Below, one piece after another: positions 625 to 64,000 of a DNA stretch of 64,000 nucleotides. A model generated the notes under the pieces. It ran no database searches. It saw nothing but the letters and a program-made list of their open reading frames with translations, and was not told the DNA's origin. The position numbers and the translations under genes are program-made. Positions within the stretch are counted from its first letter, which is position 1; each line of letters opens with the position of its first letter. The DNA is from Clostridia bacterium (lineage in GTDB: Bacteria; Bacillota; Clostridia; Christensenellales; Aristaeellaceae): assembly GCA_017543905.1 (NCBI GenBank), contig JAFYFC010000040.1, forward strand, positions 114,824-178,823, given 5' to 3'.

Positions 625-866
625 AATTAAATACAGATGCGATGAGGGAGAGAGTCCGGACAGAAGCGTGTTCAGAGAGACGCCGGTGGGTGCAAGGCGT
701 TCGCGCGGAGAAGGACCGTAGCTCCTTAGCAGAGGGAAGAAAGCCCTGAGGCAAGTAGAACCCTCCGTCAGCCCGCGCAGGGGCAAAACAAGCGCATTCC
801 TTCGGGAGTGAATTTGAGTGGTACCGCGGTATATCCGTCTCAAAGCCTTGCTTTGGGGCGTTTTTA
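625..866 (+). promoter_or_regulatory. T-box riboswitch leader (tRNA-sensing transcription attenuator)
   Basis: Stem I GA/K-turn motif TGCGATGAG (638-646). AGAGAG bulge (674-679) and distal loop GGTGGGTGCAA (685-695) closed by ACGCC/GGCGT. Specifier-loop 3' side GAAGGACCGTAG (710-721). Conserved T-box AATTTGAGTGGTACCGCGG (811-829). The antiterminator TTTGAG/CTCAAA with a TGGT bulge competes with the terminator. Confidence 0.8.
836..866 (+). terminator. Intrinsic terminator of the T-box leader
   Basis: CGTCTCAAAG (836-845) pairs with CTTTGGGGCG (851-860) over 10 bp including two G-U pairs, loop CCTTG, then TTTTTATTT. The 5' arm overlaps the 3' strand of the antiterminator. Confidence 0.7.
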
Positions 867-884: not shown

Positions 885-3203
885 ATGGCAATAACGACAG
901 GTCTTGAATACAAGCTTAAGGAGATGTCGGGGCGCATAAAAGAGCTGCGCGAGATAGAGAACATATCCATAGAGGATATGGCGCTGAAAACCGGCGTGAG
1001 CCTTGAGGAGTACATAAGCTGCGAGGAAGGCAAAAGCGATCTGAACTTCGCGTTCATATATCGCTGCGCGCTGGTGCTGGGCGTGGACGTGACCGATATC
1101 ATCGAGGGCGCGAGCCCGCGTCTGTCGTCGTACACCGTGACGCGCCGCGGCGCCGGACAGCGCATAGAGCAGGCGCACGGCATGGTTTATTATAACCTCG
1201 CCTCGCAGTTCAAAAACCGTATCGCCGAGCCGCTGTACGTAAACGCCGCCTACAGCGAGGAAGCGCAGTACAGGGATATCGAGCTGACCTCCCACGCCGG
1301 GCAGGAATGCGATATTATCATAAAGGGCAAGCTCAAGGTGCAGGTCGGCACGCACTGGGAGATACTCGAAGAGGGCGACAGCATCTATTACGACTCCTCT
1401 TCCCCGCACGGCATGATCGCCGTGGGCGGAGAGGACTGCCTGTTCTACGCGATCGTGCTCAATCCCAGCGGCGAGCCCGTGCCGGAGCTGACCGAGAACT
1501 ATTCCATGACGCTGCCCAAGCAGGCTGAAATCCAGGCCGTGAAGCCGACTGTGCCCGCGCGCGAGCATATCTGGCAGCGCTATATAGACGTCGAGGAAAA
1601 TCCGGACGGCTCCTGCAGGAGCATATCTTTCAAAAATACCGAGCATTTCAATTTCGCCTTCGACGTGGTGGACGAGATGGCGCGCCTGTATCCGGACAAG
1701 CTCGCGATGCTGCACATTTCACGCGACAAAACCGAACGCCGCTTTACCTTCGCCGACATGTCGCGCCTGTCCAACCGGGCGGCCAATTATTTCAAATCCC
1801 TCGGCATACGCAAGGGCGACCGCGTGCTGATGATGCTCAGGCGGCACTATCAGTTCTGGATAGCGATGCTCGCGCTTAATAAAATCGGCGCGGTAGGCAT
1901 ACTCGCCACCAACCAGCTGCTCAAAAAGGACCTCGTTTACCGCTTCGAAAAAGCGGGAGTTACGGCGGTGCTGTGCACCTCTACCGGCGACTGCGCCAAT
2001 CAGGTGGAGCAGGCGGCAGCGGAATGCCCGAACGTACGCACGCTGATACTCGTAGACGGCGAGCGCGAGGGCTGGCATAATTTCGACGAGGAATACCGGA
2101 TGTTCCGTTCCACGTACACTCCTGCCAAGGGCGATACCCGTCCCGAAGGCGAGGACCTGCTGCTTATGGTGTTCACCTCCGGCACGACCGGCTATCCCAA
2201 GATCGCGACTCACACGCACACTTATCCTCTCGGGCACTTCTATACCGCGCATTACTGGCACTGCGTCGATCCCGAGGGGCTGCATCTTACGATTTCGGAC
2301 ACCGGCTGGGCGAAGAGCATGTGGGGCAAGCTGTACGGTCAGTGGCTGAGCGAGGGCGCGATATTCGTATACGATTTCGACCGTTTCGACGCGAACGACA
2401 TACTGCCGATGTTCAAAAAATACAACGTCACCACCTTCTGCGCTCCGCCCACGATGTACCGCTTCATGATAAAGGAGGACCTGGCCAGGTTCGATCTATC
2501 CAGCATAAAGCACGCGACCATAGCGGGCGAGGCGCTGAACCCCGAGGTGTTCAACCAGTTCAAAAAGGCGACCGGGCTTTCGGTTATGGAGGGCTTTGGT
2601 CAGAGCGAAACCACGGTAATGATCGCAAACTCCGTCGGCATGACGCCGAAGGTCGGCTCCATGGGCAAGCCCGTGCCGCAGTATGACGTGGATATAGTCG
2701 ACGCGGACGGCAAAAGCGTGGGCGTAGGCGAAACAGGCGAGATAGTGATACGCGTTTCAGGCGGACTGCCCTGCGGATTGTGCCGCGGCTATTACGACAA
2801 CGAGCTCGGCAAGCCGCTGCTCGACGTCCACGACGGGCTGTATCACACCGGCGATACCGCCTGGCGCGACGAGGACGGCTATTTCTGGTATGTAGGCCGC
2901 GTGGACGACGTCATCAAGTCCTCCGGCTACAGGATCGGCCCGTTCGAAATAGAAAACGTTATTATGGAGCTGCCCTACGTGCTCGAATGCGGCGTCTCAG
3001 CCGCGCCGGACGAAATACGCGGGCAGGTCGTCAAGGCAAGCATAGTGCTCACCAAGGGCACGCAGGCAAGCGAAGAGCTCAAAAAGGAAATACAGAATTA
3101 CGTAAAGCACCGCACCGCGCCCTACAAATACCCGCGCATAGTCGTATTCAGGGACGAGCTTCCCAAGACCACGAGCGGAAAAATCATACGAAAACAGCTG
3201 TAA
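885..3203 (+). CDS. Fusion protein: XRE-family HTH + cupin domain + AMP-dependent (acyl-CoA) synthetase
   Basis: 772 aa, RBS GGAGG 7 nt upstream. N-terminal HTH_3-like segment (IEDMALKTGVSLEEYISCEEGK), cupin (HAGQECDIIIKGKLKVQVG...SPHGM), AMP-binding motif FTSGTTGYPK, then YHTGD...GRVDDVIKSSGYRIGPFEIE and a terminal LPKTTSGKIIR. Confidence 0.85.
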   Translation: MAITTGLEYKLKEMSGRIKELREIENISIEDMALKTGVSLEEYISCEEGKSDLNFAFIYRCALVLGVDVTDIIEGASPRLSSYTVTRRGAGQRIEQAHGMVYYNLASQFKNRIAEPLYVNAAYSEEAQYRDIELTSHAGQECDIIIKGKLKVQVGTHWEILEEGDSIYYDSSSPHGMIAVGGEDCLFYAIVLNPSGEPVPELTENYSMTLPKQAEIQAVKPTVPAREHIWQRYIDVEENPDGSCRSISFKNTEHFNFAFDVVDEMARLYPDKLAMLHISRDKTERRFTFADMSRLSNRAANYFKSLGIRKGDRVLMMLRRHYQFWIAMLALNKIGAVGILATNQLLKKDLVYRFEKAGVTAVLCTSTGDCANQVEQAAAECPNVRTLILVDGEREGWHNFDEEYRMFRSTYTPAKGDTRPEGEDLLLMVFTSGTTGYPKIATHTHTYPLGHFYTAHYWHCVDPEGLHLTISDTGWAKSMWGKLYGQWLSEGAIFVYDFDRFDANDILPMFKKYNVTTFCAPPTMYRFMIKEDLARFDLSSIKHATIAGEALNPEVFNQFKKATGLSVMEGFGQSETTVMIANSVGMTPKVGSMGKPVPQYDVDIVDADGKSVGVGETGEIVIRVSGGLPCGLCRGYYDNELGKPLLDVHDGLYHTGDTAWRDEDGYFWYVGRVDDVIKSSGYRIGPFEIENVIMELPYVLECGVSAAPDEIRGQVVKASIVLTKGTQASEELKKEIQNYVKHRTAPYKYPRIVVFRDELPKTTSGKIIRKQL

Positions 3204-42970: not shown

Positions 42971-43199
42971 GAAATGATACCCCCAAATATTAATGGCCGC
43001 GCGCATCGGCTGACCTGATCTTTGACCCCACACTCGCCGGCTGGGACGTTCGCTCCTAAGCAGCTGCTCCCCACTACTTGCCCTCTCGGTTTTACCGGCC
43101 GGACTTACTTCTAAGCCGCACCATGCTCGCCTGATGTTTCATCTGGTTTACGTGGATCGTTTTGCCTGCGACTGGCTTCGACTTTCAACCACAGACCCG

Positions 43200-43239
43200 A
43201 AAAACGCGCGATTACAGCAATTATACTATAATGCGCGCG
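43200..43239 (-). terminator. Intrinsic terminator after the MBL-fold gene
   Basis: Minus strand CGCGCGCATTA...TAATCGCGCG (10 bp with one bulge) followed by TTTTT. Confidence 0.55.
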
Positions 43240-62518: not shown

Positions 62519-63411
62519 TGCTCTTCCAGCTCCCGGCTTTTGCCTGTAAAAAACAGCGCGACCGTGCCCGGCCCGGTGTGGCTGCCTATTACGGTGCCGA
62601 TGCTGTTTATCAGCACCTTGCCGTTAAGTTTCGGAAAACGCGCCTCCACGAGCTCCGCAACCGCGCGCGCGTCCTCGTAACAGCCGGAATTGCTTACAAA
62701 GCACTTGCCGGAATACTCTCTGCCTCCGTCCGCATATTCCTCCATCACGTCGACTATTCTCGATATTACCTTCTTTTTGGTGCGTATCTTTTCCATCGGG
62801 ATCAGTCTGCCCAGCTTGTCCACGTGCAGCAGCGGGCATATGCCGAGTATCCCTCCGAAGAAGCCGGCGGTTTTGGACACGCGTCCGCCCTTGATGTAGT
62901 ATTTGAGCGTGGTGGAGAAAAACCAGTGGTGCAGCTTTAACTTGTTCTGCTCGATCCACGCGTAAAGCTCGTCGATGCTCAGACCCTCGTCGCGCTTGTC
63001 GGCGATCAGCTCCATAAGCAGCCCGTATCCAGAGGACGCGGCCAGCGAATCGATTATGTAAAGCTTCCTGTCCGGATATTTGGCTCTCAGCCCCTCCGCG
63101 GCTATATTGGCGGAGTTGTAGGAGCCGGAAAGTCCGCTTGAAAAATCCACGTGCAGCAAATCGCTGCCCTGCTTAAGGACGCTTTCAAAAAACGCCTCGT
63201 ATTCTTCTACATTTATCTGGCTCGTGCGCGTATCCGCGCCCTCGTCCATAGCTTTGTAGAATTTATCGAAGGGCATCGACTCTCCGAGATCGTCCGGATA
63301 CTTTTTGCCGTCCAGCTCGAACTGGAAGCAGATATATTTTATATTCCGTCTGTCGAAATGCTCCTTTGACAAATCCGCCGTGGAACAGCAGCTTATTATG
63401 TAATCGCTCAT
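62515..63411 (-). CDS. DegV family fatty-acid-binding protein
   Basis: 298 aa: IISCCSTADL, TSQINVEEY, SSGLSGSYNSA, HTGPGTVALFF. Confidence 0.85.
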   Translation of the reverse strand: MSDYIISCCSTADLSKEHFDRRNIKYICFQFELDGKKYPDDLGESMPFDKFYKAMDEGADTRTSQINVEEYEAFFESVLKQGSDLLHVDFSSGLSGSYNSANIAAEGLRAKYPDRKLYIIDSLAASSGYGLLMELIADKRDEGLSIDELYAWIEQNKLKLHHWFFSTTLKYYIKGGRVSKTAGFFGGILGICPLLHVDKLGRLIPMEKIRTKKKVISRIVDVMEEYADGGREYSGKCFVSNSGCYEDARAVAELVEARFPKLNGKVLINSIGTVIGSHTGPGTVALFFTGKSRELEEQ

Positions 63412-63485
63412 ACGCTAATCCGTCCTTCCGCGCCTTTATTAACATTCAGAGAAAAAATCCGGCGCATTTTTTAACAGCAGCAGTA

Positions 63486-63514
63486 TTGACTTGAAATAAA
63501 AACGGTGCTATACT
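63486..63514 (+). promoter_or_regulatory. Promoter TTGACT-17-TATACT of the DAHP synthase leader
   Basis: Hexamers at 63486-63491 and 63509-63514. Confidence 0.6.
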
Positions 63515-63589
63515 TCCGCCATTCAAGGGCATTCTAACATAGGCAGGTTACTTTTTCAAGCGTACGAATGCCGACATACGGAGTTTAAC

Positions 63590-63670
63590 ATGAACGAGCG
63601 CAAACACATAACCGAAATGTATTACTTTTACTTTAGCTTTACCGGCGCGGACGGTAAGGTCGGTTTGTGA
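63590..63670 (+). CDS. Candidate Tyr/Phe-rich leader peptide (26 aa) of an attenuator
   Basis: GGAG lies 6 nt upstream of the ATG. MNERKHITEMYYFYFSFTGADGKVGL: six of seven consecutive codons (63620-63640) are Tyr or Phe. Too short for the ORF track. Confidence 0.55.
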   Translation: MNERKHITEMYYFYFSFTGADGKVGL

Positions 63671-63697
63671 TTGAGTGTTTGTGATAATAAAGTCATA

Positions 63698-63738
63698 AAG
63701 GCGCCGCACAGATTGACCTGTACGGCGCCTTGATTTTT
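63698..63738 (+). terminator. Intrinsic terminator (attenuator) 27 nt upstream of the DAHP synthase ATG
   Basis: AAGGCGCCG-c-ACAG-ATTGAC-CTGT-a-CGGCGCCTT (9+4 bp) followed by GATTTTT. Confidence 0.75.
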
Positions 63739-63764
63739 AAAATGCATTTTCGGAGGACATATTT

Positions 63765-64000
63765 ATGATCGTTATACTTAAGCCGAATATCGCACAGCAA
63801 AAGCAGGCGCAGCTCATCGACTGGCTCAAAAGTATGGGACTCGGCGTCCACATATCCGTGGGCGAGTTCCAAACCGTACTTGGCCTTATCGGCGACACCA
63901 CCAAGGTCGACATCGATCTTATCAGCAGTCTCGACATAGTCGAGGCCGTAAAGCGGGTAACGGAGACCTTCAAGTGCTGCAACCGCAAATTCCATCCCGA
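63765..64000 (+). CDS. aroF: 3-deoxy-7-phosphoheptulonate (DAHP) synthase, type I-beta with N-terminal ACT/ferredoxin-like regulatory domain (partial, runs off window)
   Basis: My translation from ATG 63765 (RBS GGAGG): MIVILKPNIAQQKQAQLIDWLKSMGLGVHISVGEFQTVLGLIGDTTKVDIDLISSLDIVEAVKRVTETFKCCNRKFHP. It matches the MIVVLK...G..VH.S.G...TVIG.IGD...VD......L..VE.V.R...P.K...R.FHP pattern of Thermotoga-type DAHPS. Confidence 0.75.
   Translation, partial: MIVILKPNIAQQKQAQLIDWLKSMGLGVHISVGEFQTVLGLIGDTTKVDIDLISSLDIVEAVKRVTETFKCCNRKFHP

Follow-up and report, generated by a model that had tools for sequence, protein, structure and literature searches.

The DAHP synthase leader and its genomic setting

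The window analyzed here, a stretch of 64,000 nucleotides from a Clostridia bacterium of the Aristaeellaceae (contig JAFYFC010000040.1, positions 114,824 to 178,823), ends within the first gene of an aromatic amino acid operon. This gene codes for a DAHP synthase, and the region immediately upstream of it (63486-63764) combines a promoter, a mini-open reading frame (mini-ORF) with a run of Tyr and Phe codons, and an intrinsic terminator (Table 1). A preliminary description of the stretch had proposed that this leader is a Tyr/Phe-sensing attenuator, and a check of the sequence together with folding recovered all of its building blocks at the same positions: the promoter, the mini-ORF preceded by GGAG, the aromatic codon run and the terminator. 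The promoter agrees with the consensus at 10 of 12 positions and has a TG preceding the -10 element; the predicted transcription start lies at about 63521. Six of the seven codons in the run specify Tyr or Phe. The terminator stem is G+C-rich (free energy of -23.1 kcal/mol in folding), and it was missed by a simple terminator scan due to an internal mismatch in the stem, being recovered by folding and a custom search.

Table 1. Positions of the elements of the DAHP synthase leader and of two further structured RNAs in the window
Feature	Positions	Strand	Details
Sigma-70-type promoter	63486-63491, 63509-63514	+	TTGACT, 17-nucleotide spacer, TATACT
Hairpin in the 5' untranslated region (5'-UTR)	63528-63572	+	GGGCAUUC...GAAUGCC; upstream of the mini-ORF; in both minimum free energy and centroid structures
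Shine-Dalgarno sequence	63580-63583	+	GGAG; ATG 6 nucleotides further 3'
Leader ORF	63590-63670	+	26 codons and TGA (at 63668); peptide MNERKHITEMYYFYFSFTGADGKVGL
Regulatory codon run	63620-63640	+	Codons 11-17, Tyr-Tyr-Phe-Tyr-Phe-Ser-Phe; putative sensing element
Segment 0	63606-63614	+	ACA.AACCG; outer anti-antiterminator strand; partner 63661-63668
Segment 1	63636-63644	+	GCUUUACCG; contains the last Phe codon and a Thr codon
Segment 2a	63652-63660	+	CGGUAAGGU; partner of segment 1
Segment 2b	63654-63669	+	GUAAGGUCGGUUUGUG; antiterminator 5' strand; overlaps 2a and the first two bases of TGA
Segment 3	63707-63723	+	CACAGAUUGACCUGUAC; antiterminator 3' strand; equals upper 5' arm, loop and upper 3' arm of the terminator
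Intrinsic terminator	63698-63738	+	Stem-loop 63698-63731, then U-rich tail UUGAUUUUU to 63738
DAHP synthase gene, 5' part	63765-64000	+	Runs past the window end; Shine-Dalgarno GGAGG at 63752-63756
T-box leader	633-845	+	79.7 bits (gathering score 93), E = 1e-15; full-length, canonical UGGUACCGCG
raiA RNA motif (RF03072)	43001-43205	-	190 bits

The synthase combines the DAHP_synth_1 domain (PF00793) with an N-terminal ferredoxin-like domain (PF18152) and is of type I-beta, as had been proposed; its ATG follows the U-tract by 26 nucleotides rather than by the 27 originally counted. As seen on contig L001 (104 kb, same species), its gene opens a closely spaced series of eight, the remaining ones coding for prephenate dehydrogenase, DHQ synthase, EPSP synthase, chorismate synthase, chorismate mutase/prephenate dehydratase, shikimate dehydrogenase-kinase and type II dehydroquinase. 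The operon on this contig thus covers the common pathway along with the Phe and Tyr branches (tyrA and pheA), and trp genes are absent from it. On the opposite side the neighboring degV-bioY genes are divergently oriented, and the terminator therefore cannot belong to them. Across five independent assemblies of the species the 389-nucleotide intergenic region is identical except for one single nucleotide polymorphism, which is found in L004 at window position 63618 (ATG to AGG) and changes Met10 to Arg directly before the aromatic run.

A further promoter-like site (TTGAAA-17-TAGAAT, with TG) lies on the minus strand at 63559-63531, facing degV and crossing the aro promoter (63486-63514), with the predicted starts of the two only a few bases apart. 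It sits inside the 5'-UTR hairpin and may account for the unusually long stretch of 70 nucleotides 5' of the mini-ORF.

Conservation of the leader in related genomes

A scan with the full DAHP synthase, using one genome per GTDB species, yielded 80 loci with 65-85% protein identity. These relatives are mostly labelled Oscillospiraceae (Faecousia, Lawsonibacter, Oscillibacter, Hominicoprocola), and also include Flintibacter, Pseudoflavonifractor and Acutalibacteraceae. Carriers of the leader that have been cultured are Flintibacter faecis BX5 (L036), Pseudoflavonifractor sp. AF19-9AC (L060), Hominicoprocola fusiformis CLA-AA-H269 (L019) and Oscillospiraceae bacterium 50-58 (L058). An ATG-initiated mini-ORF with a Tyr/Phe run is present 150-330 nucleotides 5' of the synthase in 74 of these species loci, nearly all of the in-frame leader starts being preceded by a Shine-Dalgarno-like motif, and a strong hairpin with a U-tract lies between the mini-ORF and the synthase in 72. 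A strict definition, requiring an ATG, a Shine-Dalgarno-like motif, a length of 12-45 codons and no fewer than 5 aromatic residues within 7 consecutive ones, still recovers 65 of the 80 loci. In 50 dinucleotide shuffles it recovers 0.1 on average, and on the reverse complement none. Within the 64 kb studied here, on both strands, it matches the leader ORF alone, and a search of the same stretch for further homopolymeric leader ORFs returned background ORFs inside genes only.

The leaders of the family carry 5-8 mixed Tyr and Phe codons, and the residue composition of 75 of them is 17% Phe, 15% Tyr and 0.4% Trp. The scarcity of Trp codons goes along with an operon devoid of trp genes, i.e. the amino acids presumed to be sensed match the content of the operon. 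The alignment of upstream regions of orthologs, which had been suggested at the outset, shows both the conserved aromatic run and, as detailed below, compensatory changes in the paired segments.

The leader together with the Clostridia-type operon was also seen in five metagenome-assembled genomes labelled Thermoguttaceae, Alloprevotella, Lentisphaerae or Kiritimatiellae (L014, L018, L064, L079 and L086). These are probably mis-binned contigs or mislabelled assemblies rather than genuine occurrences outside Bacillota.

Alternative RNA structures and their covariation

Three alternative structures can be recognized in the leader. The first, extending over 63606-63668 (-16.5 kcal/mol), brings together an inner helix, in which segment 1 pairs with segment 2a, and an outer helix, in which ACA.AACCG of segment 0 pairs with CGGUU.UGU (63661-63668). 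Folding confirms the inner helix as initially drawn; the four-segment model of which it was part is supported, except that it lacked the outer strand. The second, the antiterminator, is a helix of 16 bp between segments 2b and 3 with G63720 bulged, and the substructure containing it (63651-63724) has a free energy of -31.0 kcal/mol. The pairing of 63654-63661 with 63715-63723 earlier put forward as the antiterminator is real, but accounts only for the outer half; conservation across the family is highest in the inner half (GGUUUGUG with CACAGAUU), which had been missed. The third is the terminator itself, whose pairs are crossed by those of the antiterminator. Therefore, the two are mutually exclusive, in agreement with the incompatibility already recognized in the preliminary description.

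Comparison across the loci supports each of these helices. In the terminator, 89.8% of the cells are paired (24-49% in slid controls), and there are 92 double-change cells as against 22 in shuffles, with none of 500 shuffles reaching as high a count. The antiterminator core is paired in 79% of the cells, compared to 24-58% when the partner is slid, with 19 double-change cells against 9.9 in shuffles (1/500). This modest covariation results from the near-invariance of UUUGUG and CACAG, which is the expected behavior of bases obliged to pair with two different partners. The outer part of the antiterminator pairs with the variable loop of the terminator and shows clear covariation: its loop-proximal 7 nucleotides, in a fixed register, form 4.71 pairs with the native partner and 3.85 across loci (p=5e-5), and the perfectly compensated combinations include GGUCGGU/AUUGACC, GGUUAAU/AUUAACC, GGUUCAU/AUGAACC, GAGUAAU/GUUACUC and GGAUAAU/GUUAUCC. 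When the register is left free, the duplex energy averages -16.4 kcal/mol for native and -12.5 kcal/mol for cross-locus combinations (p<=1e-4), a test free of best-duplex bias because the non-native pairs are optimized likewise.

The 1:2 helix is 88-92% paired and occurs in two registers, namely type A, which includes the window (CUUUACN with NGUAAGG), and type B, found in Faecousia-like leaders (CUAUUACUUUUU with AAAAAGUAAUAG). Its compensatory changes include a switch from A-U to U-A that turns the Tyr codon UAU into the Phe codon UUU. Segment 0, in turn, is more complementary to the antiterminator 5' strand of its own locus than to those of others (-12.45 versus -10.13 kcal/mol, p<=1e-4), and in 25 of the 72 loci a copy of 6 or more nucleotides from the 5' arm of the terminator is present in the N-terminal coding part of the leader. 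In the Faecousia-type leaders (L031-L085, e.g. L038 2835-2900), a peptide motif "AAQ" just before the aromatic run is encoded by GCC GCA CAG (GCN GCA CAG), i.e. such a copy of the terminator arm. Judging from its sequence, this apparent peptide motif is really an RNA anti-antiterminator strand predicted to pair with the antiterminator 5' strand.

A covariance model of the leader family

An alignment of 49 leaders (A2) displays four conserved blocks: UAUUACUUU(ACN or UUU), made up of aromatic codons; (A)AGUAAGG or AAAGUAAUAG; NNAUUUGUG(C/A)UGCA, after which there is a variable spacer; and GC(C/G)GCACAG, a loop and CUGUGC(G/C)GC, followed by U's. Both the 1:2 hairpin and the terminator were independently predicted by RNAalifold. 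A covariance model built from this alignment (R1) and searched over 611 kb on both strands detects exactly one significant copy per locus, always immediately 5' of the synthase, and recovers 11 leaders from outside the seed alignment. The six loci devoid of the mini-ORF give no match, nor does the window contain a second copy. The same architecture with a diverged sequence is found in some 15 other loci, e.g. those of the Oscillibacter type.

The conserved element (A/G)UUUGUG(C/A)UGC (the UUUGUGCUGCA block) encodes "DLCC" as part of the ORF in some lineages and lies 3' of the stop codon in others. Similarly, the GCNGCACAG block, the copy of the terminator arm, is kept as nucleotides whatever the frame or the position of the stop. 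The independence of the former block from the stop codon, together with the above result on segment 0, leads to the conclusion that the constraint outside the aromatic run acts on the RNA and not on the peptide.

A scan of metagenome contigs with the core GTAAKRGNNRWTTTGTGMTGC returned 111 stretches, and among the 80 listed only 2 are true leaders by the covariance model, one of which (L130), on inspection, precedes a DAHP synthase. The remaining stretches match by chance, and the scan is thus uninformative with respect to distribution.

Ribosome position and folding of the nascent transcript

The relationship between these structures and a translating ribosome was evaluated in 72 loci by folding only the RNA 3' of the leading edge of the ribosome, with the transcript ended after the terminator loop. 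The mean pair probability of the antiterminator is 0.35 with no ribosome (median 0.07) and falls to 0.15 with a ribosome at the stop codon (median 0.00). When the ribosome occupies the aromatic codons, it rises to 0.88-0.89 (median about 0.94), a value that is partly built in, since the best duplex was what defined the antiterminator pairs; the contrast with the stop codon is therefore the informative one. The antiterminator remains below 0.5 with the ribosome at the stop in 61 of the loci, and the full pattern of an antiterminator on upon stalling and off at the stop is likewise found in 61; in 38 it is additionally off without a ribosome. Thus, the nascent folds agree with the original proposition that a stalled ribosome frees segment 2 and a ribosome at the TGA blocks it. 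A looser variant of the procedure, in which the footprint is masked and the upstream RNA is kept, gives an effect in the same direction. For the window transcript ended at the terminator loop, the 1:2 structure rather than the antiterminator forms when no ribosome is present; with the A site on any of the codons from Y11 to F17 the antiterminator forms, and with the ribosome at the TGA it cannot. Equilibrium folding with ribosome masks was dropped as a measure in favor of nascent-transcript folding, as it did not discriminate between ribosome positions.

Certain lineages have longer ORFs of 32-37 codons, namely L032, L036, L037, L049 and L060 of the Lawsonibacter/Flintibacter/Pseudoflavonifractor type and L054, L065, L069 and L070 of the Oscillibacter type. 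In these variants the antiterminator 5' strand is well within the coding region, and a ribosome must therefore translate through it.

Mechanistic interpretation and alternatives

The anatomy of the leader, its conservation, the covariation of its helices and the geometric fit of the ribosome positions point to a classical ribosome-mediated leader-peptide transcription attenuator, which very probably senses charged tRNA-Tyr and tRNA-Phe. The comparative evidence, i.e. the presence in about 74 species, the helix covariation and the locus-by-locus complementarity, strongly supports this reading, which is also that of the preliminary description. From it we infer the translation of the leader, the stalling, the coupling to the polymerase and the regulatory response, which would unfold as follows. 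After initiation near 63521, a ribosome would translate the 26-codon leader as RNA polymerase approaches the terminator. With Tyr- and Phe-tRNA plentiful, it would reach the TGA at 63668 and cover the antiterminator 5' strand (63654-63669); the terminator (63698-63738) could then fold, and transcription would end before the operon. Should the ribosome be gone, or the leader never be translated, the extended 1:2 structure (63606-63668) would sequester the same strand. With Tyr or Phe scarce, the ribosome would stall on codons 11-17, leaving segments 0 and 1 melted or covered, and segment 2b would be free to pair with 63707-63723 once this has been transcribed. The antiterminator would thereby pre-empt the terminator and allow the polymerase to enter the eight-gene operon. 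Given the mixture of Tyr and Phe codons, either amino acid could be sensed.

Several points weigh against attenuation of this kind, in addition to the partial circularity of the stalled-state values mentioned above. To start with, the leader has no counterpart in six of the 80 relatives (L007, L012, L077, L026, L068 and L073), among them the one with the closest DAHP synthase of all (L007, 85% identity). Without a ribosome, the antiterminator is still predicted in 26 of the 72 loci and is sequestered in only 46. The window itself shows a weak contrast in the same analysis, with values of about 0.6 for the stalled ribosome, 0.44 for no ribosome and 0.00 at the stop. Further, in the full-length leader at equilibrium the terminator dominates at every ribosome position (median of about 0.96); hence, the switch must be kinetic, as in E. 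coli trp, which in turn means that the ribosome must keep pace with the polymerase. Bacillota, for their part, have been classed at the phylum level as showing "runaway", i.e. uncoupled, transcription (PMC13323073). However, ribosome-mediated transcription attenuation is documented for resistance genes of B. subtilis (PMC4191407, PMC6851288), bmrCD being one example (PMC4191407).

As for the six relatives, the synthase is directly 3' of another coding region in L026, L068 and L073, and an untranslated upstream region without a Tyr/Phe ORF is found in L007 (about 2550-3000), L012 and L077. The absence of the leader in these loci suggests that the regulatory mechanism turns over between closely related genomes.

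The foremost alternative to ribosome-mediated attenuation is an attenuator controlled by a TRAP- or PyrR-like protein or by a small molecule, binding to RNA rich in UAU, UAC and UUU, to which the ORF would be incidental. Protein- or ligand-controlled attenuation is common in Firmicutes, the competing terminator and antiterminator are genuine and would be of use to any mechanism of this type, and part of the aromatic run is constrained by RNA pairing alone, segment 1 being the UAUUACUUU sequence. However, such a mechanism leaves unexplained why start signals, an open frame and the position of a stop should be conserved: the in-frame ATG, nearly always with its Shine-Dalgarno-like motif and with no intervening stop, is kept in 74 loci, and in 61 of 72 the stop is placed such that a terminating ribosome would cover the antiterminator strand. 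The aromatic run also continues 5' beyond the paired segment and shows both synonymous exchanges and exchanges between Tyr and Phe, and the leader matches no Rfam riboswitch or leader model and has no regularly spaced repeat resembling TRAP sites. We accordingly consider control by a protein or ligand to be improbable.

Slightly less probable still is the possibility that the mini-ORF product is no sensor and instead functions as a small hydrophobic or aromatic peptide, whether co-transcribed or separately terminated. The peptides are indeed hydrophobic, and the longer homologs (32-37 residues) have been called as genes, either without a name or as "hypothetical protein", the number of contigs ranging from hundreds to at least 1000, with the Flintibacter-type peptide occurring on at least 1000 contigs of public assemblies. 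Nevertheless, only the Tyr/Phe run is kept at the peptide level, with lengths ranging from 17 to 41 residues and both termini variable, whereas the flanking UUUGUGCUGCA and GCNGCACAG blocks are conserved as nucleotides irrespective of frame. The link to the DAHP synthase and the terminator is invariant, and the peptide has no family match in NCBIfam (E<=10) or Pfam (E<=1).

A divergent T-box or another tRNA-sensing leader might be considered, as aromatic genes in Firmicutes are often under T-box control and the window has a T-box of its own at 633-845. This is highly unlikely: the same library that detects the latter with E = 1e-15 yields no T-box match in 63400-63800 at E<=10, the leader is devoid of the UGGUACCGCG box, Stem I and the specifier architecture, and the distance from the predicted start to the terminator is too short and occupied by the ORF. 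No amino-acid leader family in the Rfam library (Phe_leader, leu/phe leader, Trp_leader and the rest) matches the leader at the gathering score or at E<=10 either. Identity with a T-box or a riboswitch, which would have spoken for a different reading of the leader, was accordingly rejected. Finally, a chance coincidence of ORF, codon run and hairpins, conceivable a priori only for a single sequence, is refuted by the comparative data (65 of 80 loci under the strict definition versus 0.1 in shuffles, and covariation and cross-locus permutations with p<=1e-4) and has a negligible likelihood.

Taken as ribosome-mediated attenuation, the system would explain how these Clostridia tune Phe and Tyr synthesis, and ribosome-polymerase synchrony would have to be sufficient for classical amino-acid attenuation in a lineage of Bacillota. 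It thus offers a natural, sequence-defined test of translation pacing transcription in this phylum beyond the antibiotic-resistance leaders. It also adds a well-supported cis-regulatory RNA family, directly convertible to a covariance model for genome annotation, to Clostridia of the gut and rumen that are abundant and for the most part uncultured, and in which gene regulation has received little study.

Additional elements in the window

The T-box leader at 633-845 bears on the earlier statement that the organism uses T-boxes, which is borne out by the full-length match and its E-value, even though the score stays below the Rfam gathering cut-off. It precedes an ORF (885-3203, + strand) for a protein of 772 residues that is not an aminoacyl-tRNA synthetase and combines a helix-turn-helix domain with a cupin and an AMP-binding domain resembling acyl/aryl-CoA ligases. 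The other structured RNA, on the minus strand, is a raiA motif, a class of structured RNAs of unknown function typical of Firmicutes and Actinobacteria.

Comparison with known systems

Searches of the literature on Clostridia, Ruminococcaceae and Clostridiales provided analogues of this element and no description of the element itself. We lean towards regarding it as representative of a large family of functional attenuators for which we found no description, distributed over no fewer than 74 species of Oscillospiraceae and of gut and rumen Clostridia allied to them. It would then sense both Tyr and Phe for the whole common pathway with its Phe and Tyr branches, and would demonstrate ribosome-polymerase synchrony in a lineage of Bacillota. 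The element is real, conserved and mechanistically coherent; its novelty is moderate, lying in the RNA family and the lineage, with the principle already known. On this count the preliminary description had claimed too much, as leader-peptide control of DAHP synthase is known experimentally from the aroR-aroF system of C. glutamicum, an upstream ORF (uORF) of aroF has been predicted in Acholeplasma, and His leaders have been predicted in Firmicutes.

In the pheL-pheA and trpL-trp systems of E. coli, the regulatory codons are positioned at segment 1 and the stop codon such that segment 2 is blocked, with 2:3 pairing forming the antiterminator and 3:4 pairing the terminator. The leader described here follows the same four-segment logic, and its distance of 70 nucleotides from the stop codon to the terminator end is about that of E. 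coli trp. It differs from these in lacking a match to an Rfam leader model, in the mixed Tyr and Phe codons, in belonging to another phylum and in the extra outer segment 0 of the N-terminal coding region, which copies the terminator arm. We know of no Tyr-sensing leader in E. coli.

A functional parallel is the C. glutamicum aroR leader peptide (Phe-Tyr-Phe) upstream of aroF, where stalling raises transcription of the operon (Neshat et al., 2014, as summarized in PMC11802643 and PMC4046766). Both place a leader with Phe and Tyr codons before a DAHP synthase and agree in regulatory logic and in the first enzyme targeted. By description, aroR is distinguished by its occurrence in an actinobacterium and its three aromatic codons, as opposed to 5-8 Tyr/Phe codons and an eight-gene operon including tyrA and pheA in the Clostridia. 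It is the one other reported case of a Tyr-codon sensing leader that we found, and in the same summaries it is reported to respond to Phe and not to Tyr (PMC11802643, PMC4046766).

A further parallel is the uORFC-13-1 motif of Acholeplasma, a lineage related to Firmicutes, and of environmental sequences; its predicted uORF includes Phe codons, precedes a terminator and is located upstream of aroF exclusively (Brewer et al., 2021, PMC8632094). The two share the uORF with Phe codons and the terminator before aroF. The motif comprises 24 sequences with a run of U's coding for at least one Phe, and no alternation of Tyr and Phe is reported for it (PMC8632094), in contrast to the Tyr/Phe mixture seen here; the distinction is one of description, and the Rfam scan gave no match. 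Leader-peptide attenuators of His operons have likewise been predicted in the B. cereus group, Peptostreptococcaceae including C. difficile, and Erysipelotrichales (PMC9413887). These resemble the present family as leader peptides of amino-acid operons that extend to Clostridia and were found by comparative genomics, and differ from it in the amino acid, operons and lineages concerned, the RNAs themselves being unrelated.

The T-box (RF00230), like the leader described here, is a 5' switch between terminator and antiterminator that precedes amino-acid genes of Firmicutes and takes tRNA charging as its signal. The difference lies in the reader of this signal: the T-box makes direct contact with uncharged tRNA and carries no ORF, whereas the Tyr/Phe leader would read the charging state through the translating ribosome.

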